A DNA stretch of 64,000 nt, from NCBI GenBank assembly GCA_947085095.1, contig CAMTVD010000014.1, positions 32,001 through 96,000 of the forward strand, written 5' to 3'. Each line of letters opens with the position of its first letter. Positions within the stretch are counted from its first letter, which is position 1. A program made the translations under genes and the position numbers. Below the pieces are notes generated by a model. The model was not told where the DNA came from and did not search any database. It saw only the letters and a list, made by a program, of their open reading frames with translations. Of this stretch, positions 19,207-29,435 are shown one piece after another. This DNA is from an uncultured Thermus sp. Lineage in GTDB: Bacteria; Deinococcota; Deinococci; Deinococcales; Thermaceae.

Positions 19207-21039
19207 GCCATCGGCAAGCTGAACCTCAAACCGCCCTTCCCGGGGGAGGCCCTCCGTGGAGAAGCGGGCCTCCCCGCCCCGGTGCCAGAGGCCCAGGGTG
19301 GTGCGGGTCCCGTCCTCCGCCACGTGGACCAAGGAGAGGTAAGGGTAACCCGCCCAGCGTACCCGGAGGAAGCCCCCTTCCTCCCGGAGCTCCACCTTTG
19401 GCTCCGCTCGCGGCCTCAGGCCCGCCGCCACCTCCTCGAGGAGGACCCCATCCCGCCAGAGGCTCACCCGGTTCCACTCCCCCAAGGGGAGCCGGGCCTG
19501 GAAGTGGAGGGTGCCCTCGGAGTCCTCCAGGACGTACACCTCCACTTCAAGATAGCCCTCCCGCTGGCCCACCCCGTGGGCCCGCAGGCGGTAGGGGGAG
19601 GGCCTCCCCTCCGGGGCCACCGCCAGCCTCAGGGGCGGGTTGAAGGCCACCTCGTCCCCCCGGATGCGCCCGGAGAAGAGCAGCCCTTCCTGGGGCAGGG
19701 ACTGGGGCCTGGGCGGGTTCTGCTCCAGGAAGGCCTGGGCGTGCTCGTAGGTGTAGTCGGAGATCCACTGGGGGGCGCAGTAGCTCATGAGGTCGTAGCG
19801 CTCGCTGGGGTTGCGGAGGGTCCTGCTTTCCAGATCGTACCCCCAGGTGCCGATCAGGCCGTTGGGATAGGGGTAGTTGGGGTCCCCGCTGGTGCCGCAA
19901 GGGGCGTGGCCGCGGCCAAAGTTGTGCCCGAGTTCATGGGCCATGACGGTGGGGGCGCTCCCCGCGTGATCCCACCCCGCGGCCACGGGATGGCCGATGT
20001 AGCCGATCCCGGCGATGCCGGAGGTGTAGGTGACCCGCACGAAGCCGTAGTAGTAGCGCCCGCTGCCGTCCGCCTGGCGTAGGAGCCGGATTTCATCCAA
20101 AAGCCGGCTCCAGCTGTTGCCATCGCTGGGACTGAGGGTGCCGGAGAAGGTGTAAGGGGCCCGGGTGGTGGAGGAGATGTTCTGGAGGGGCCAGATGCGC
20201 CAGAGGGTCTGGGCGAAGTTGGGGATGGAGGCGGTCTGCTCCTGGTGCACCACCGGCACCACGGTGAGGTGGAGGACGGTGCCCGCACCCACGGGGGGGC
20301 TCAGGGTGAGGGCGTTGTCGCTTTCGTCGCTTTCGGCCACCTGGTTGTGGGGGTCAGCCCGGACCTCCACCCTGAGGCCGGAGGCCACCCAGTTCCCGGG
20401 TAAGGTGGCGTTGCAGGTGGTGGCCAGGTCGCCCTGGGCGGTGGAGGTGGGGACGGGGTTGGGGCAGGTGAAGCTCAGGTTCCCCTGGAAGGTGCCTCCC
20501 AGGTAGGCCGCTCCTGCGAGGGGCTGGGTTAGGGTGAGGGCGTTTGGGCTAGCCACCAGGTGCACCCGGAGGAGCGCCTCCTTCCCCGCCACCAGGCGGA
20601 GCCCTTCCTTGAGGACGGTCTGGCCCCACTCCGCTTTGAGGATGCGGAGGTTGACCGTGGAGGCCGCCTGGACCTGAAGGGTTAGGGGAACTTCCTTGGT
20701 AAGGCCGCCGCTGGTGCCCCGGACCTTGAGGGCGTAGGTGCCCGGGGCCAGGGAGGGGCTAGCGGAAAGCGCCAGCATGGGGGCGGAGGGTATAGGGGTA
20801 GTGGAAGGGGAGAGGCTGACCGAGGCGAAGGGGGCGTTGTTGCTGTCCACCAGGCGAAGGCTTAGGGTCCCACCGCTTCCCGTCACGGAAAGGCGCACAT
20901 AGGCGGTGCTCCCAGGGACGAGGGTGAGCTGGTTGCTTTCCAGCAACAAGGAGAAAGCGGGAGGTGGAGGGGTGTTGGCGGGGGGGGCGGTGCAAGCCCC
21001 TAGGGACAGGGCCAAGAGAAGGGCCGCTCTAAAGCCCAT
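19174..21039 (-). CDS. Lipoprotein zinc metallopeptidase (metzincin, M66-like) with Ig/CARDB-like domains
   Basis: Lipobox LGAC, zinc motif HELGHNFGRGH, Met-turn LMSYC, and CARDB-like ADPHNQVAESDESDN. Confidence 0.85.
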   Translation of the reverse strand: MGFRAALLLALSLGACTAPPANTPPPPAFSLLLESNQLTLVPGSTAYVRLSVTGSGGTLSLRLVDSNNAPFASVSLSPSTTPIPSAPMLALSASPSLAPGTYALKVRGTSGGLTKEVPLTLQVQAASTVNLRILKAEWGQTVLKEGLRLVAGKEALLRVHLVASPNALTLTQPLAGAAYLGGTFQGNLSFTCPNPVPTSTAQGDLATTCNATLPGNWVASGLRVEVRADPHNQVAESDESDNALTLSPPVGAGTVLHLTVVPVVHQEQTASIPNFAQTLWRIWPLQNISSTTRAPYTFSGTLSPSDGNSWSRLLDEIRLLRQADGSGRYYYGFVRVTYTSGIAGIGYIGHPVAAGWDHAGSAPTVMAHELGHNFGRGHAPCGTSGDPNYPYPNGLIGTWGYDLESRTLRNPSERYDLMSYCAPQWISDYTYEHAQAFLEQNPPRPQSLPQEGLLFSGRIRGDEVAFNPPLRLAVAPEGRPSPYRLRAHGVGQREGYLEVEVYVLEDSEGTLHFQARLPLGEWNRVSLWRDGVLLEEVAAGLRPRAEPKVELREEGGFLRVRWAGYPYLSLVHVAEDGTRTTLGLWHRGGEARFSTEGLPREGRFEVQLADGLSVLTFLFPR

Positions 21040-21098
21040 ACCCTTGACCCTAGCAGGCCCTGGGGGAAAGCGGATGAGAGGTGCTATCCTGGGCCTTA

Positions 21099-22208
21099 AT
21101 GCGGCCTGGGCTTTCCGCGAGGCGCCTGGTGGTGAAGGTGGGGAGCGCCGTCCTGGCCGGGGAAGAGGGTCTGGACCTGGAGGCCATGGGGAAGATCGCC
21201 CACCAGGTGGCCCTCTTGCGCCAGGAGGGGCGGGAGGTGGTCCTGGTCTCCTCGGGGGCGGTGGCGGCGGGCATGGCCCTCATGGGGCTTCCTAGGCCCA
21301 AGGACATGCCCAAGAAGCAGGCTTTGGCGGCCATCGGCCAGCCCCTCCTCATGGCCCTTTGGCGGGAAGCCTTCGCCCCCTTGGGCCTTCGGGTGGCCCA
21401 GGTCCTCCTCACCGCCGAGGACCTCTCCGCCCGGGGGCGCTACCTGAACGCCAAGGCCACTCTGAGGGCCCTTCTGGACCTGGGGGTGGTCCCCATCATC
21501 AACGAGAACGACACCGTGGCCTTCCACGAGATCCGCTTTGGGGACAACGACCAGCTCTCCGCCCGGGTGGCCGCTTTGGTGGAGGCGGGGCTTCTCCTCC
21601 TCCTTTCCGACGTGGACGCTCTCTACGAGGAGGACCCCAAGCAAAACCCCGGGGCCAGGCCCATCCTCGAGGTGGAGTCCGTGGAGGCCGTCTTGGGCCA
21701 CGCCGGGGAGGGCAACCCCTTGGGCAGCGGGGGGATGCGGAGCAAGCTTCTCGCCGCCAGGCTGGCGGGGAGGGTGGGTATCCCCACCCTCCTCCTCCCC
21801 GGCAGGCGGCCCGGGGTCATCCTGCAGGCCCTGAAGGGGGCTGCGATCGGCACTTACTTCCACGCCAAAAGGCGCTACCGGGGGGAGAAGGCCTGGCTCT
21901 ATGGGCTCCTTCGCCCCAAGGGGGAGCTGGTCTTGGACGCGGGGGCGGTTAGGGCCCTGAAGGAGCGGGGGGCGAGCCTCCTTCCCGCGGGCATTAAGGA
22001 GGTGCGGGGGAGGTTTGGCCGGGGAGAAGCGGTCCGCTTACTTTCGGAAAGCGGGGAGGAGATTGGCGTGGGCCTCGTCAACTATGCCGCCGAGGAGGTG
22101 GCCCGCATCAAGGGCAGGAGGAGCTTAGAGATAGAGGAGGTTCTGGGCTACCGCTACACCGAGGAGGTGGTCCACCGGGACCACCTGGCCCTGAAGGAGG
22201 AGGCATGA
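21099..22208 (+). CDS. proB: Glutamate 5-kinase
   Basis: Motifs VVKVGSAVL, VSSGAVAAG, INENDTV, FGDNDQLSA and GGMRSK, plus a C-terminal PUA domain. Confidence 0.97.
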   Translation: MRPGLSARRLVVKVGSAVLAGEEGLDLEAMGKIAHQVALLRQEGREVVLVSSGAVAAGMALMGLPRPKDMPKKQALAAIGQPLLMALWREAFAPLGLRVAQVLLTAEDLSARGRYLNAKATLRALLDLGVVPIINENDTVAFHEIRFGDNDQLSARVAALVEAGLLLLLSDVDALYEEDPKQNPGARPILEVESVEAVLGHAGEGNPLGSGGMRSKLLAARLAGRVGIPTLLLPGRRPGVILQALKGAAIGTYFHAKRRYRGEKAWLYGLLRPKGELVLDAGAVRALKERGASLLPAGIKEVRGRFGRGEAVRLLSESGEEIGVGLVNYAAEEVARIKGRRSLEIEEVLGYRYTEEVVHRDHLALKEEA

Positions 22209-23443
22209 CGGTGAGCCTTTGGGAGCTGGCGGCGAGGGCGAAAAGAAGGCTTCCCGAGATCGCCAAGGGGGGGCGGGACCAGGCGCTTTTGCGCATGGCG
22301 GAGCTTTTGGAAGGGGGCTGGGAGGAGGTCCTTAGGGCGAACCGGGAGGACCTCTTGGAGGCGGAGAAGGCGGGGCTTTCCCAGGCCAAGCTGGACCGGT
22401 TGGCCCTGAAGGAGAAGGACCTCAAGACCCTCACCCAGGGGCTTCGCCAGATCGCTCTTCTCCCCGACCCCCTGGGGCGGATAGAGGGCCTGGCCAAGCG
22501 TCCCAATGGCCTTAGGGTGGGCAGGATGCGGGTGCCCTTGGGCCTCATCGGCTTCGTCTACGAGGCGAGGCCCGGGGCCACGGTGGAGGCGGTGGCCGTG
22601 GCCCTCAAGGCGGGAAACGCCCTGCTCCTGAGGGGCGGCAAGGAGGCCTTCCGCTCCAACCGGGCCCTGGTGGCCCTGTGGCACCAGGCCCTAAAGGAGG
22701 CGGGCCTGCCGGAGGAGGCGGTGACCCTGGTCCCCACCACGGACCGGGAGGCCATTCTGGAGATGTGCCGCCTGGAACTTTTAGACCTCCTCATCCCCCG
22801 GGGTGGGGAGGAGCTCATCCGCCTGGTGCAGAAGGAGGCCCGGGTGCCCGTCCTGGCCCACGCCAAGGGGGTGAACCACCTCTACGTGGACGAGCGGGCG
22901 GACCTGGCCATGGCCCTGCGCCTGGCCCTAAACGGCAAGACCCAGCGGCCCGCGGTGTGCAACGCCCTCGAGGCCCTCCTGGTCCACGAGAAGGTGGCCG
23001 GGGTCTTCCTGCCCCTCCTGGAAAGGGCCATGGGGGAAAAGGGGGTAGAGCTCAGGGCCTGCCCCCGGGCCCTTCCCCTTCTCAAGGAGGCCCGCCCCGC
23101 CTCAGAGGAGGAGTGGGACCGGGAGTACCTGGACCTCATCCTCCGGGTGAAGGTGGTCTCGGGGCTGGAGGAGGCCCTGGAGCACATCGCCCGCTTTGGC
23201 TCCCGCCACACCGAGGCCATCTGCACCGAGGACCCAAGGGCGGCCTGGCGCTTTCTGGAGGAGGTGGACGCCTCCCTGGTCCTCTGGAACGCCTCCACCC
23301 GCTTCAACGACGGCTTTGAGCTGGGCCTGGGGGCGGAGATCGGCATCAGCACCTCCAAGCTCCACGCCTACGGCCCCATGGGGCCCGTGGAGCTCACCAC
23401 CCTGAAGTGGGTGGCCCTGGGGGAGGGGCAGGAGCGGGCGTGA
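22205..23443 (+). CDS. proA: Gamma-glutamyl phosphate reductase
   Basis: Motifs VPLGLIGFVYEARP, LIPRGG, VCNALE, NASTRFNDG and GISTSKLHAYGPMG. Confidence 0.97.
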   Translation: MTVSLWELAARAKRRLPEIAKGGRDQALLRMAELLEGGWEEVLRANREDLLEAEKAGLSQAKLDRLALKEKDLKTLTQGLRQIALLPDPLGRIEGLAKRPNGLRVGRMRVPLGLIGFVYEARPGATVEAVAVALKAGNALLLRGGKEAFRSNRALVALWHQALKEAGLPEEAVTLVPTTDREAILEMCRLELLDLLIPRGGEELIRLVQKEARVPVLAHAKGVNHLYVDERADLAMALRLALNGKTQRPAVCNALEALLVHEKVAGVFLPLLERAMGEKGVELRACPRALPLLKEARPASEEEWDREYLDLILRVKVVSGLEEALEHIARFGSRHTEAICTEDPRAAWRFLEEVDASLVLWNASTRFNDGFELGLGAEIGISTSKLHAYGPMGPVELTTLKWVALGEGQERA

Positions 23444-24000
23444 AGGACCTGGCGGAGGCCTGGCGGCTTATAGAGGCGGGGCGCTACCGGGAGGCCGAGG
23501 CCCTCCTCGCTCAAGACCCTTCCCCTGAGGCCCGCTTCCTCCTGGGGTATGCCCTGGTCTTCCAGGGCAGGTACGAGGAGGCCCTATCCCTTTACCGGGC
23601 CCTCTACCGGGAGTCCGGGAGCCACTGGGCCCTCCACCAAGTGGGGATGGTCCTCCGGATGGCGGGCAGGCTGGAGGAGGCCCTCGCCGTTTTTGAGGAG
23701 GAGGCCCGCCTCCTTCCCCAAGACCCCCTGGCCCGCTCCGTGAACCTCTACGAGCGGGGTTACACCCGGCTCCTCCTAGGGGAGAAAGGGGAAGCCCTGG
23801 CCCTCCTCCGGGCCGCCCTCGCTGAGGCCGAGGCCTCCTTTGACCCCACGGCCCAGGCCTGCGCCCACCGGGGCCTTTTGGAATGGCACCTCCGCTTCGG
23901 CCAAGAGGAGGGGGTCCGGCGGCACAAGGAGGCGGCCATCCGATGCTTCCTCAAGGCCGGGGATCCCAAGGGGGCGGAGGAGGTGGAGGGCCTTGCTTAG
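23440..24000 (+). CDS. Tetratricopeptide repeat protein
   Basis: Repeated TPR-like units (LLGYALVFQGRYEEAL; QVGMVLRMAGRLEEAL). GTGA overlap with proA. Confidence 0.75.
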   Translation: MKDLAEAWRLIEAGRYREAEALLAQDPSPEARFLLGYALVFQGRYEEALSLYRALYRESGSHWALHQVGMVLRMAGRLEEALAVFEEEARLLPQDPLARSVNLYERGYTRLLLGEKGEALALLRAALAEAEASFDPTAQACAHRGLLEWHLRFGQEEGVRRHKEAAIRCFLKAGDPKGAEEVEGLA

Positions 24001-24775
24001 GGACCTCATCCGGATTTACCAGGAGGCCCACGTCCCCTTCTTCGCCGCCGCTTTGGCCTACTACGCCCTCCTTTCCCTCATGCCCCTTCTCCTCCTCCTG
24101 GCGGGCCTCTTCGGCTTCCTCCTCTCGGGGAACCCCGCCCTCCGGGCCGAGGTCTTCCAGGGCCTAGAGGAGCTCACCCTGGCCCTCCTTCCCGCCCGCC
24201 CGGAGCTAGCGGGGGAGGTGCTTTCCTTTCTCACCAAAGGCGCCTTCCCCCTCACCCTGGGAAGCGGCCTCCTCCTCCTTTGGTCTGGGAGCAATTTCTT
24301 CGCCGCCTTGAGCTACGCCCTGGGCCTCGTTTTCGGGCGCCCCTTTGGCTTCCGCCACCGGCTTTTGGGCCTCCTCATGCCCCCCCTGCTGGCCCTCTCC
24401 CTCATCCTCCTTTCCCTCCTGGGCCTCGCCTTGGGCTTTCTCCTGCGCTACCTTCCCCCCGAGTGGCGAAGCCTATTGGGCCCCCTCGAGGCCTTCTTAC
24501 CCCTTCTTGCCGCCTTTCTCCTTTTCCTCCTCACCTACGCCCTCTTCCGGGGTGTGAAGGGCTTCAGGGACCTCCTCCCCGTGAGCGCCGGGGCGGGGGT
24601 GGCCACCCTCCTCTTTGAGGGGGTGCGCCTCCTTTTGCCCAAGCTCCTCCCCCGCTCCCAGTACGAGCTCCTCTACGGCCCCCTGGCGGGCTTCGTCCTG
24701 GCCCTTTTGGGCCTTTACCTGGTCCTCTACGCCCTCCTCCTGGGGGCGGTGGTGGCCCGGAGCCTCGAGGCCTAG
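23993..24775 (+). CDS. YihY/virulence factor BrkB family membrane protein
   Basis: [16 protein letters not shown] and [10 protein letters not shown], with multiple TMs. Confidence 0.85.
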
Positions 24776-24790
24776 GGGTATCATGGACTC

Positions 24791-24817
24791 ATGTGCCCGG
24801 CCAGGCTAGCCCCCTAG
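24791..24817 (+). CDS. Putative leuS leader peptide MCPARLAP
   Basis: ATG TGC CCG GCC AGG CTA GCC CCC TAG, starting 6 nt after TATCAT. The single Leu codon is CTA. Confidence 0.6.
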
Positions 24818-24837
24818 GTGGGGAGGGGCCTGGCCGT

Positions 24838-24866
24838 CCCTTCCCAAAGAGGGGAAGGGTTTTTTT
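24838..24866 (+). terminator. Intrinsic terminator in the leuS 5' leader
   Basis: CCCTTCCC-AAAGAG-GGGAAGGG-TTTTTTT. Confidence 0.85.
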
Positions 24867-24879
24867 GAGGAGGCTGAGG

Positions 24880-27516
24880 ATGGAGAAGTACAACCCGCAC
24901 GCCATAGAGCCCAAGTGGCAGCGCTTCTGGGAGGAGAAGGGCTTCATGAGGGCCAAGGAGGTCCCCGGCAAGAGGGGGAAGCAGTACGTCCTGGTCATGT
25001 TCCCCTACCCCTCTGGGGACCTGCACATGGGCCACCTGAAGAACTACACCATGGGGGACGTCCTGGCCCGCTTCCGCAAGGTCCAGGGCTACGAGGTCCT
25101 CCACCCCATGGGCTGGGATGCCTTCGGGCTCCCCGCGGAGAACGCCGCCCTCAAGTTCGGCCTCCACCCCCGGGACTGGACCTACGAGAACATCCGCCAG
25201 GCCAAGGAGAGCCTTGCGCTCATGGGCATCCTCTACGACTGGGACCGGGAGGTCACCACCTGCGAGCCCGACTACTACCGGTGGAACCAGTGGATCTTCC
25301 TCAAGATGTGGGAGAAGGGCCTCGCTTACCGGGCGGGGGGTCTCGTCAACTGGTGCCCCAAGTGCCAGACGGTCCTGGCTAACGAGCAGGTGGTGGAGGG
25401 GCGGTGCTGGCGGCACGAGGACACCCCGGTGGAGAAGCGGGAACTCACGCAGTGGTACCTGCGGATCACCGCCTACGCCGACCGCCTCCTAGAGGACCTC
25501 GAGGGCCTGGACTGGCCGGAGAAGGTGAAGGCCATGCAAAGGGCCTGGATCGGCCGCTCCGAGGGGGCGGAGATCCTCTTCCCCGTGGAGGGGAAGGAGG
25601 TGAGGATCCCCGTCTTCACCACCCGCCCCGACACCCTCTTTGGGGCCACCTTCCTGGTCCTGGCCCCCGAGCACCCCCTCACCCTGGAGCTTTGCGCCCC
25701 CAATAGGCGGGAGGAGGTCTTAGCCTACGTGGAGGCCGCCAAGCGCAAGACGGAGATGGAGCGCCAGGCGGAGGGCAGGGAAAAGACCGGGGTCTTCCTG
25801 GGGGCCTACGCCCTAAACCCCGCCACCGGGGAAAGGATCCCCATCTGGACCGCGGACTACGTCCTTTACGGCTACGGCACCGGGGCCATCATGGCCGTGC
25901 CCGGCCACGACCAGAGGGACTTTGAGTTCGCCAAAAGGTTCGGCCTTCCCATCCGGAAGGTCATTGAGCGCCCCGGGGAGCCTTTGCCCGAGCCCCTGGA
26001 AGGGGCCTACGAGGAGCCGGGGATCCTGGTGAACTCGGGGCCTTTTGACGGCCTCATGAGCGAGGAGGCCAAGGGGCGGATCACCCTTTGGCTTGCGGAG
26101 CAGGGCTTCGGGAGGGCCCGCGTCACCTACCGCCTCCGGGACTGGCTCATCAGCCGCCAGCGCTACTGGGGCACCCCCATCCCCATGGTCCACTGCGAGG
26201 CCTGCGGGGTGGTGCCCGTGCCCGAGGAGGAGCTTCCCGTCCTCCTTCCCGACCTCAAGGACGTGGAGGACATCCGCCCCAAGGGGAAAAGCCCCTTAGA
26301 GGCCCACCCCGAGTTCTACGAGACCACCTGCCCCAAGTGCGGCGGCCCCGCCAAGCGGGACACGGACACCATGGACACCTTCTTTGACAGTAGCTGGTAC
26401 TACCTCCGCTACACGGATCCCAAAAACGACCGCCTCCCCTTTGACCCCAAGAAGGCGGACTTCTGGATGCCCGTGGACCAGTACATCGGCGGGGTGGAGC
26501 ACGCCGTGCTTCACCTCCTCTACAGCCGCTTCTTCACCAAGTTCCTCCACGACCTGGGGATGGTGAAGGTGGAGGAGCCCTTTAGGGGCCTCTTCACCCA
26601 GGGCATGGTCCTGGCCTGGACGGACTTCGGCGAGGTGGAGGTGGAAGGGGACAGGGTGCGCCTCCCCGAGCCCACCCGCATCCGGCTGGAGATTCAGGAG
26701 AGGGAGCTTTCCCTGGAGGACGTGAGGAAGATGGGGGCCGAGCTAAGGCCCCACGAGGACGGCACCCTGCACCTCTTTAAGCCCGCGGTGATGAGCAAGT
26801 CCAAGGGCAACGGGGTCATGGTGGGGCCCTTCGTGAAGGAGGAGGGGGCGGACATCGCCCGCATCACCATCCTCTTCGCCGCTCCCCCCGAGAACGAGAT
26901 GGTCTGGACCGAGGAGGGGGTGCAGGGGGCCTGGCGCTTCCTGAACCGGATCTTTAGGCGGGTGGCCGAGGACCGCTCCGAGCTGGAGAAGATCTCGGGT
27001 AAGTTCCAGAAAGAGGACCTGGAGGGAGCCGACCAGGAGCTTTACCGGAAGCTCCACGCCACCCTCAAGAAGGTGACGGAGGACCTCGAGCACCTGCGCT
27101 TCAACACCGCCATCGCCGCCCTCATGGAGTTCCTGAACGCCCTCTACGAGTACCGTAAGGTGCGCCCCGTCACCCCCCTCTACCGCACCGCCATCCGCTA
27201 CTACCTGCAGATGCTCTTCCCCTTCGCCCCCCACCTGGCCGAGGAGCTCTGGCACTGGTTCTGGCCCGATAGCCTCTTTGAGGCGGGCTGGCCCGAGCTG
27301 GACCCGGAGGCCCTGGAAAGGGACGTGGTGGAGGTGGCCGTCCAGGTGAACGGGAGGGTGCGGGGCACCATCCAGCTCCCCAAGGACGCCCCCCTGGAGG
27401 TGGCCAAGGCCGAGGCCCTCAAGGTGAAAAACGTCCAGGCCCACCTGGAGGGGAAGGAGATCGTCAAGGAGATCTACGTCCCCGGGAAGATCCTCAACCT
27501 GGTAGTGCGGGGCTAG
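24880..27516 (+). CDS. leuS: Leucine--tRNA ligase
   Basis: HIGH-like motif [13 protein letters not shown], editing motif [17 protein letters not shown] and [18 protein letters not shown]. Confidence 0.98.
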
Positions 27517-28195
27517 GGAGGCTTAGACGGGTGGCCTCGAGGCGGGCCACCTCCCCCTCAAAGGGGGTGAGGAAAAGCCCCTCCCCCCCTCCCCAGGCCA
27601 GGAGCCTCCCGTAAGCCAGAAAGAAGCCCTCGCCGTCCAGGAGGCTGTAAAGCCTTTGTGGCTCCCCGGGGCCCTCCAGGGGGAGGGTTCTGGGCCTTGC
27701 CCCCTGGAAGTGGGCGAGAAGCCTCTCCAGACGGGCCCTCCTCCTCTCGGCGGCCGTCTTCCTCCGGGCCTCGGGGAGGGGCTTGGCCAGGCGCACCTTG
27801 AGGTCCTTGCGCCAGGCTAGGGCCCGGTGGAGGGTCTCCGAGCCCAGGACCAGGACCTCGGCGGGGCTTAGGGCGTCCACCTGGAGGAGGCGGTAGCTGG
27901 GGTCCAGGAGGCCGTCCGTGTCCCCTATGGCCGGGCTTCCCCTGGGGATGAGGCGGGCTAAGCGCAAAGCGGCCACCAGGGCCCTGGCCTCCACCCCGAG
28001 GGGGGAGAGGGCCCCCACCAGGGCCCGGCGCACCGGGGTCAGGCTCCCTTCCCGGTAGCGGAAGAGGGTGAAGGTCCCGGGCAGGGACCCCTGCCCCGGG
28101 TCCAGGTCCAGGAGGTACCCCTCCTTGGCCCGCTCCAGAAGCCTCATGGCCAGGGTGGTCTTGCCCACATCCGTGGGGCCCAGGAGGAGGAGCAT
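27494..28195 (-). CDS. Clp1-like polynucleotide 5'-kinase
   Basis: P-loop [20 protein letters not shown] and a basic lid ERRRAR. Confidence 0.75.
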
Positions 28196-28271
28196 CAGGG
28201 AAGACTCTAGCACGCCCTGTAACCTGACGCATTTTTACTTATCAGCAGGAAAGTGTTATACTAACCCCACC

Positions 28272-29435
28272 ATGGACCTGTGGTTTGAGGAGAGCAGGGA
28301 GGAGCGGGCGGTCTTGGGGCCCTTGCGCGAGTTCCTGAAGGCGGAGGTGGCCCCGGGGGCGGCGGAAAGGGACCGGACAGGGGCCTTCCCCTCTGACCTG
28401 GTGCGGAAGATGGCCCAGCTCGGGGTCTTCGGGGCCACGGTGCCCGAGGCCTACGGGGGGGTGGGGCTTCCCATGCGGCTCTTCGCCCGCATGGTGGAGG
28501 AGATCGCCTACTACGACGGGGCTTTGGCCCTCACCGTGGCCAGCCACAACTCCCTGGCCACGGGCCATATCCTCTTGGCGGGGAACGAGAAGCAGAAGGC
28601 GGAGTTCCTGCCGAGGCTCGCCTCGGGGGAGGCCTTAGGGGCCTGGGGCCTCACGGAGCCGGGTGCGGGCTCGGACGCCGCCGCCCTCAAGACCAAGGCC
28701 TCGGCGGTGCCCGGTGGGTTCCTCCTAAACGGCACCAAGCAGTTCATCACCCAGGGGAGCGTGGCCGGGGTTTACGTGATCGTGGCCCGCACCGACCCAG
28801 CCCCTGGCCCCGAGAAGAAGCACCTGGGGATCTCCGCTTTCGTCTTTTCCCGCCCGGAGAAGGGCCTAAAGGTGGGCAAGAAGGAGGAGAAGCTGGGGCT
28901 TAGCGCCTCGGACACCGCCCAGCTCGTCCTGGAGGACCTCTTCGTCCCCGAGGAGGGGCTTCTGGGGGAACGGGGCAGGGGCTTTTACGATGTCCTCAGG
29001 GTCCTGGACGGGGGAAGGATCGGCATCGCCGCCATGGCCGTGGGCCTGGGCCGGGCCGCCTTGGACTTCGCCCTGCGCTACGCCAAGGAGCGGGAGGCTT
29101 TCGGCAGGCCCATCGCCGAGTTCCAGGGGGTTTCCTTCAAGCTGGCGGAGATGGCCACTGAGCTGGAGGCGGCGAGGCTTCTCTACCTGAAGGCGGCGGA
29201 GCTCAAGGACGCGGGGCGGCCCTTTGCCCTCGAGGCCGCCCAGGCCAAGCTCTTCGCCAGCGAGGCGGCGGTCAGGGCCTGCGACGAGGCCATCCAGATC
29301 CTGGGCGGCTACGGCTACGTGAAGGACTACCCCGTGGAGCGCTACTGGCGGGACGCCCGCCTCACCCGCATCGGGGAGGGGACCAGCGAGATCCTCAAGG
29401 TGGTCATCGCCCGGCGTCTTCTAGAAGGGGTGTGA
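28272..29435 (+). CDS. Acyl-CoA dehydrogenase
   Basis: Motifs [33 protein letters not shown] and RIGEGTSEI. Confidence 0.95.

Follow-up and report, generated by a model that had tools for sequence, protein, structure and literature searches.

In the order to which Thermus belongs, a leader peptide of leuS, the gene for leucyl-tRNA synthetase (LeuRS), has already been described. In Deinococcus deserti, 14 putative leaderless leader peptides are reported, with the transcription start site (TSS) placed at the A of the ATG by differential RNA sequencing, and one of them, Deide_14169, is a leaderless leuS leader peptide for which a role in transcription attenuation was proposed (de Groot 2014, PMC4007540; the published systems are cited here from parts of the respective papers). 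The element analysed in the present study stands directly upstream of leuS in an uncultured Thermus sp. (GCA_947085095.1), on contig CAMTVD010000014.1 (hereafter C14), of which positions 32,001-96,000 make up the window, i.e., the whole 64,000-nucleotide (nt) stretch of DNA under analysis, with the leader region inspected at 24400-25100 of that window. It shares with Deide_14169 the order, the gene, the place directly upstream of leuS and the Leu at codon 6, and one locus of a Deinococcus-like sister family (L102) encodes a peptide identical to Deide_14169. On the other hand, Deide_14169 has 13 codons, two of which are Leu codons (CTT/CTC, not CTA), and a longer spacer, with the TSS at -112, and the portions of that paper used here neither analyse its structure nor deal with Thermus. 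Leaders of the D. deserti type also fold differently from those of Thermus in the models presented below, given that their naked RNA already forms the antiterminator and that they have no stem between segments 1 and 2.

Classical attenuators were also predicted before leuS in Streptomyces (Seliverstov et al. 2005, PMC1262725), and the leuL2-leuS arrangement of this genus is similar to the Thermus locus in that a leaderless peptide lies directly before leuS, with a hairpin and a U stretch after it (PMC1262725; Droste et al. 2021, PMC8079986). LeuL2 opens with M-R-A-V-R-L, with Leu at codon 6, which resembles the M-R-x-A-R-L of Thermus, although it comes from another phylum, has 12 codons and contains three consecutive Leu codons.

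The leu leader of the enterobacteria has a longer open reading frame (ORF) with its own Shine-Dalgarno sequence and four adjacent Leu codons, and it controls a biosynthetic operon, whereas the Thermus leader controls the synthetase. Three of its codons are CUA (Carter et al. 1986, cited by Elf & Ehrenberg 2005, PMC1183508), the codon that an earlier sequence-only reading of the window had named for this leader, and the rarity of these codons is discussed as a reason for the sensitivity of the Salmonella leu attenuator (PMC1183508). The two leaders have in common the use of the rare CUA as the regulatory codon and the four-segment logic of terminator and antiterminator. In Escherichia coli, pheST is an aminoacyl-tRNA synthetase (aaRS) gene under leader-peptide attenuation, as here, but with a run of Phe codons and a leadered ORF. 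The pair pheST/pheM is named as a gamma-proteobacterial precedent in PMC1262725. The leuS T-boxes of the Firmicutes (Wels 2008, PMC2494555) have the outcome that is predicted for the Thermus leader, that is, more LeuRS when tRNA-Leu is uncharged, by way of a terminator and an antiterminator. A T-box, however, is an RNA of ~200-300 nt that reads the tRNA directly, whereas the Thermus leader has 76 nt and its sensor would be the translating ribosome.

This kind of element is, then, already in print, and the leuS leader of Thermus and the Thermaceae is a further case of it, probably related to the published Deinococcus leader. The sequence-only reading, which knew of no description for Thermus leuS, agrees as regards the genus with the full-text literature, in which no account of a Thermus or Meiothermus leuS leader was found (the texts covered included neither Lopatovskaya et al. 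2010 nor the TSS tables published by Cohen et al. 2016); as regards the kind of element, it had been anticipated by the leuS leaders of D. deserti and Streptomyces. The element itself is quite likely a ribosome-mediated leader-peptide transcription attenuator of leuS, with the leader translated from a leaderless transcript. The components of a classical attenuator are found together in it, i.e., a leader ORF with a cognate codon, a terminator before the gene and, in silico, a competing antiterminator and a 1:2 anti-antiterminator.

The leader, which measures 76 nt from the ATG at 24791 to the end of the T-tract, contains four segments that may pair in alternative ways (Table 1), with segment 1 pairing with 2b (the anti-antiterminator), 2a with segment 3 (the antiterminator) and segment 3 with segment 4 (the terminator). 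The minimum free energy (MFE) fold of the 93-nt leader is the combination of 1:2 and 3:4 (-48.4 kcal/mol, z = -2.2), the terminator has a GC-rich stem and an energy of -14.6 kcal/mol, and the 2a:3 helix is formed by 10 pairs, 2 of them G-U. The inspection of the sequence returned the hexamer, the upstream ORF, the CTA codon, the segments, the terminator and the ribosome-binding site at the very positions given in the sequence-only reading, and the terminator scan returned the hairpin. The three mutually exclusive stems which it proposed are also present, with the refinement that 1:2b and 2a:3 have just three bases in common (24828, 24829 and 24836) and would exclude each other mainly by topology, because the two together would make a pseudoknot without a linker.

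The behaviour of these stems was followed in thermodynamic models at 70 C, in which the part of the leader that ends with the terminator 5' arm was folded either naked or with a mask reaching 12 nt beyond the first base of the A-site codon, the ribosome being placed at the CTA or at the stop codon. The fraction of the terminator 5' arm that is paired upstream, averaged over 61 leaders, was 0.24 in the naked RNA, 0.72 when the ribosome was at the first CTA, and 0.15 when it was at the stop. Among the 32 Thermus leaders, no arm base was paired in 28 of the naked RNAs (the exceptions being L002, L020, L031 and L032), at least 5 were paired in all 32, and at least 8 in 27, when the ribosome was at the CTA, and none was paired in 29 when it was at the stop (the exceptions being L020, L022 and L031). 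An antiterminator that appears only with a CTA-stalled ribosome was obtained for 28 of the 32 leaders with the 12-nt footprint, and the switch was robust for footprints of 11-16 nt (21-31 of the 32), with the diverged loci that start with GTG following the same pattern as the other leaders of the genus. In the leader of the window, 8 of the 8 arm bases were paired upstream with the ribosome at the CTA, and 0 of the 8 either in the naked RNA or with the ribosome at the stop, while the equilibrium probability of the central terminator pair in the full leader, also at 70 C, was 0.92 naked, 0.07 at the CTA, and 0.82 at the stop. The masked folds reproduce in this way the earlier proposal that a stall at the CTA leads to read-through and a ribosome at the stop to termination.

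The mechanism suggested by these folds would begin with transcription starting at, or immediately beside, the A of the ATG at 24791, 6 nt past the -10 hexamer, and with the loading of a 70S ribosome on the 5' AUG. When Leu-tRNA(UAG) is ample, the ribosome is predicted to reach the stop codon and to leave its footprint on 2a, in which case segment 3 is free, 3:4 forms, and RNA polymerase would stop 13 nt before leuS. When the charged tRNA is scarce, the ribosome would wait with the CTA in its A site, covering segment 1 and ending just before 2a, so that in the models 2a:3 forms first and leuS is reached by read-through. Termination is also predicted when no ribosome is present, given that 1:2b and 3:4 then form together. 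The 1:2 hairpin may, in addition, pause RNA polymerase so that the ribosome catches up, and the terminator hairpin probably also terminates the transcripts that come in from proBA-yihY. The net result would be more LeuRS when a minor tRNA substrate of the enzyme is poorly charged.

The conservation of the leader was examined with a LeuRS N-terminal query, which found leuS in 32 of the 32 genomes of the genus and in 66 of the 68 genomes of the family, and the DNA upstream of all 66 was read with a parser for a TANNNT hexamer, 5-8 nt, and a start codon (ATG or GTG) that opens an ORF of 4-20 codons holding at least one CTA. The pattern, with 6-7 nt of spacing, is present in 63 of the 66 Thermaceae upstream regions, and a terminator in 61 of these 63, whereas only 6 of 20000 random 312-nt windows of the source genome match the parser at the same spacing. 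When the CTA condition was dropped, the 66 regions yielded 65 candidate ORFs, 63 of them with a CTA (the extra 2 are in regions already counted), and the CTA filter did not, therefore, create the conservation result. The three regions missed by the parser all belong to one genus (g5). At one of these three loci, a tRNA-Leu(taa) gene (L039:124-209) lies directly upstream of leuS, in the place occupied by the leader in its relatives.

Within Thermus, the ORF starts with ATG at 29 loci and with GTG at 3, it has 8 codons in 28 cases and 7 in 4, and the Leu stands at codon 6 in 29 of the 32 and at codon 5 in the remaining 3. The position of the stop is fixed, although the stop codon may be TAG (12), TAA (14) or TGA (6), and the 32 genomes encode 18 distinct peptides in which codons 2, 3 and 7 vary. 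A fixed stop position, interchangeable stop codons and freely varying codons 2, 3 and 7 would be expected of a peptide that is translated and has no function of its own. In the 32-row alignment, the helix pairs are kept in 88-96% of the cells (88.5% for the pairs of segment 1), and segments 1 and 2b are conserved at the nucleotide level. Three diverged loci (L023, L025 and L032), which have other stem sequences and the GTG start, nevertheless retain the CTA, the stop, and the switch. The alignment that had been suggested as a check on the leader was, in this respect, favourable to it, given that Thermus and most Thermaceae keep the start codon, the CTA, the position of the stop and the stems.

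The choice of codon is also characteristic. Across 795 long ORFs of the source genome, which has one tRNA-Leu(tag) gene, only 2.9% of the Leu codons are CTA, whereas in the 63 Thermaceae leaders the count is 83 of 101, and CTA is found in all 63, with two or three CTA codons per leader in the genera other than Thermus. When a second copy of the leader was sought in the source genome, only the match of the leader to itself was obtained.

A TANNNT hexamer stands precisely 6 nt ahead of the start at all 32 Thermus loci. In the source genome as a whole, this motif peaks at 6 nt (198 cases) and 7 nt (151 cases) before 6251 candidate starts of long ORFs, with 4-52 cases at the other spacings; leaderless genes are thus common in this genome and have the same spacing as the leader ORF, which extends to the whole genome what the sequence-only reading had seen in the window. 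From the spacing of the -10 hexamer and the genome-wide peak at 6-7 nt, the TSS is inferred to lie at or beside 24791. As leuS is single-copy (one strong LeuRS match in the source genome), and given that only 11-16 nt separate the end of the T-tract from the leuS ATG at all 32 Thermus loci, all leuS transcription passes the terminator, and the possibility raised earlier of a promoter downstream of it finds no room in these 11-16 nt. An alternative ORF from an ATG inside the -10 hexamer (24783) was considered and rejected, as only some relatives have it open, while in others it is closed or missing. Among the other Thermaceae genera (L036-L066), g2 and g5 have a conserved TACAAT/TAGAAT-like hexamer ~100 nt after the attenuator terminator and ~30-40 nt before leuS, and it may be a second, unattenuated leuS promoter; the hexamer is retained in three g5 genomes that have no leader.

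Beyond the Thermaceae, a sample of leuS upstream regions from families f2-f5 of the order was scored for a leader and a terminator. Both were found in 17 of the 20 regions of the Deinococcus-like sister family (f3, L086-L105), where the peptide type of D. deserti is seen in 20 of 20, the regulatory codon is CTT or CTC, and Leu is codon 6 in 17 of 17. They were likewise found in 13 of the 19 regions of f4, with CTA and with Leu at codon 6 in 13 of 13, and in 10 of the 10 regions of f5, where the first Leu codon is CTA, again at codon 6 in all 10. Family f2 gave only 2 of 10, which are ambiguous. The regulatory Leu codon varies, in this way, by lineage, being CTA in the Thermaceae, f4 and f5 and CTT or CTC in f3, while position 6 is constant. 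By eye, the f4 peptides M-I-W-A-G-L and M-I-R-A-E-L bridge M-I-R-S-A-L and M-x-x-A-R-L, all of them too short for statistics. In the other families, the naked RNA already folds the antiterminator, and the extra 1:2 stem, and with it the full four-segment attenuator, seems in these models to be specific to Thermus and one further genus (g6).

Other leaders of this architecture were sought in the source genome, where a strict scan gave 2 matches and a loose scan gave 17 rows, of which 5 were judged meaningful and the rest noise. All of the following lie outside the window. On contig C2 (~23896-24000, + strand), a metG-like gene is preceded by TACAAT, 7 nt, and a leaderless 7-codon leader with an internal ATG (ATG AAG GGT ATG CCC CCG GGC TAG), after which come G/C-rich alternative stems, a T8 hairpin and GAGGAGG, and this element resembles the leuS leader in design and would be a leaderless attenuator that senses Met. 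A trpE-like gene on C14 (from contig position 257337, + strand) is preceded by a leaderless 11-codon ORF with tandem TGG TGG and a terminator, which to judge from its sequence is a classical trp leader in leaderless form. Upstream of a leuC-like gene on contig C24 (381 on the reverse complement, - strand), a leaderless 15-codon ORF with CTG CTA GAC CTA is followed by a terminator, the rare CTA serving again, and twice, as a leucine codon. Finally, a homocitrate-synthase-like gene on contig C10 (6135 on the reverse complement, - strand) has a GTG-start 9-codon ORF with a single AAA (Lys) codon (GTG AGA AAA AAC ...) and a terminator, which may correspond to the leader peptide of the lysine cluster of T. 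thermophilus. A leader peptide of the Thermus lysine cluster was reportedly described by Tsubouchi and colleagues in 2005. The cognate codons at cognate genes, with CTA at the leuC-like leader, are independent support for the attenuator reading.

The locus itself consists of a proB-proA-yihY row upstream of leuS, of which the BrkB/YihY gene is the last member, and the neighbours were assigned by Pfam as proB-like (AA_kinase and PUA), proA-like (Aldedh), BrkB/YihY-family and LeuRS. The stop codon of yihY (TAG, 24773-24775) is separated from the -10 hexamer by 3 nt.

Table 1. Features of the leuS leader locus, in window positions
Feature	Position	Strand	Basis or remark
BrkB/YihY-family gene, upstream neighbour	23840..24775	+	ORF list; Pfam PF03631, 3.9e-28
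-10 hexamer TATCAT of the putative leader promoter	24779..24784	+	Sequence; followed by 6 nt and the ATG at 24791
Leaderless leader ORF, 8 codons and TAG, MCPARLAP*	24791..24817	+	ATG TGC CCG GCC AGG CTA GCC CCC TAG
Putative regulatory Leu codon CTA, codon 6, sole Leu codon of the leader ORF	24806..24808	+	Sequence
Segment 1, CGGCCAGGC, 5' arm of the 1:2 anti-antiterminator, possible pause hairpin	24798..24806	+	MFE fold
Segment 2	24820..24836	+	2a pairs with segment 3 (antiterminator), 2b with segment 1
Segment 2a, GGGGAGGGGC	24820..24829	+	Antiterminator arm
Segment 2b, GCCTGGCCG	24828..24836	+	Partner of segment 1
Segment 3, GTCCCTTCCC	24836..24845	+	Pairs with 2a in the antiterminator and with segment 4 in the terminator
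Intrinsic terminator, CCCTTCCC/GGGAAGGG (24838-24859) and T7 (24860-24866)	24838..24866	+	Terminator scan; 8-bp stem, 6-nt loop
leuS ribosome-binding region GAGGAGG...	24867..24879	+	13 nt from the T-tract to the leuS ATG
leuS, leucyl-tRNA synthetase, 878 amino acids, ATG 24880-24882	24880..27516	+	Pfam tRNA-synt_1_2, Leucyl-specific, Anticodon_1

The leucine-sensing attenuator has to be weighed against other explanations of the same sequence. It is improbable that the leader responds to translation in general, in such a way that any delay of the first ribosome, whether through slow initiation on the leaderless AUG or, at codons 2-5, through a shortage of Cys, Pro, Ala or Arg, covers segment 1 and gives read-through, with leuS following overall translational capacity. 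Segment 1 (transcript nt 8-16) does lie inside the footprint of a ribosome at any of codons 1-6, and the leader of Thermus has a single Leu codon only. A general sensor of this kind is difficult to reconcile, however, with a CTA that is the sole invariant sense codon besides the stem-locked ones, while codons 2, 3 and 7 vary freely, and that represents 2.9% of Leu codons in the genome vs 82% in the leaders; the two or three CTA codons in other Thermaceae genera, the CTA in the leuC-like leader and the cognate codons in the trpE-like and metG leaders also speak for a specific signal. A lower probability still is given to an RNA switch independent of translation, in which the GGCCAGGCUA...GCCUGGCC hairpin binds a protein (e.g., LeuRS) or tRNA-Leu, and the ORF is incidental. 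The autoregulation of aaRS genes by leader binding and the T-box control of leuS are known elsewhere and count in its favour, as does the conservation of segments 1 and 2b in Thermus, which exceeds what the peptide would need at the nucleotide level. Across genera, however, the hairpin does not keep its sequence, whereas the CTA, the stop just before a G-rich segment and the start at a distance of 6-7 nt from the -10 hexamer are all retained, and the stop codon switches between TAG, TAA and TGA. The scan of 24300-25300 with Rfam, at E values up to 10, gave neither a T-box nor an amino-acid leader family, with unrelated families at chance level only, and the portions of Wels 2008 (PMC2494555) used here give T-boxes in the phylum only for the ile and gly ligases of D. 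radiodurans.

It is very unlikely that the hairpin is a mere terminator of the proBA-yihY operon, with a fortuitous upstream ORF and fortuitous alternative stems, and with leuS expressed through leaky read-through. A yihY-like gene does lie upstream on the same strand at 26 of the 30 Thermus loci (by tblastn), and the terminator scan found no other terminator between the yihY stop and leuS in the window. The element is kept, nonetheless, at the 4 of the 30 loci with another upstream gene (L023, L025, L029 and L030), and at two of these (L029 and L030) a C-run/G-run with a T6 stretch can be made out by eye ~20 nt ahead of the -10 hexamer, which may serve the upstream gene as a terminator of its own. 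It is also kept in other genera and families, its ORF pattern has the low chance rate given above (6/20000), and the three-state folds are conserved. The idea, considered in the sequence-only reading, that the hairpin only ends the upstream transcript survives, given this, as a probable additional role and not as the sole one. Finally, a mini-ORF that encodes a functional micropeptide is scarcely credible, for, conserved and probably translated as it is, it gives 18 peptides in 32 Thermus genomes, each of 7-8 residues, in which only the stem-locked Ala-Arg-Leu and a Pro are kept.

Several points weigh against the leucine-sensing attenuator itself. There is only one regulatory codon, and in so short an ORF segment 1 would be masked by a ribosome at any point between initiation and codon 6, which leaves the specificity for leucine dependent on the CTA as the slow step. 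Considerable basal read-through is needed for a single-copy, essential gene placed behind a strong terminator, and the loading of a ribosome and the translation of five codons within a 76-nt leader are kinetically tight, which requires a pause that is itself inferred. The promoter has no recognisable -35 element, and a sigma-70 two-hexamer scan misses it (the sole match in 20000-29000 is at 28234). The covariation of the stems, which was also expected from the alignment, is not significant within the genus, where helix changes are one-sided or G-U only and where neither shuffles nor slid controls single out any compensatory change. The public RNA, for its part, comprises 24 runs, all in the form of assembled Logan contigs, and in the 4 runs compared with the locus the stretch is covered by contigs from a ~95% identical relative, in which starts, ends and levels are not readable; in 3 of these 4 runs, one contig spans yihY, the leader, and leuS, and in the 4th the contigs end at 24845 and resume at 24877.

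A broader interpretation is possible, and is offered as a tentative one, in which leuS is preceded throughout the order by one ancient leaderless attenuator, possibly akin to the leuL2 of Streptomyces, with a one-codon sensor whose place at position 6 would be set by the footprint of the 70S ribosome on a 5'-terminal AUG. As the codon is always the rare CUA in the Thermaceae, the leader would monitor the charging of one minor isoacceptor, tRNA-Leu(UAG), and not leucine in general. With its 7-8 codons and 76 nt, it would rank with the smallest ribosome-mediated attenuators in nature, and, as the ribosome and the RNA polymerase of Thermus are standards of structural biology, a natural attenuation complex could be studied structurally in a direct way. 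The sharing of this rare codon with the enterobacterial leu leader is apparently a convergent use.

If the attenuator reading is true, this leader would provide a compact and thermostable natural test case for the coupling of transcription and translation on leaderless mRNA. As regards annotation, ORFs of 7-15 codons such as these are missed by gene finders. The attenuator also accounts for an essential synthetase gene that sits 13 nt behind a strong terminator, and it would give Thermus a feedback loop from the charging of tRNA-Leu to the supply of LeuRS. The leaderless leader peptides of D. deserti are extended in this way to Thermus, Meiothermus and allied genera and, together with the metG, trpE-like and leuC-like leaders, the leuS leader suggests that the thermophiles of this group use ribosome-mediated attenuation where the Firmicutes use T-boxes.

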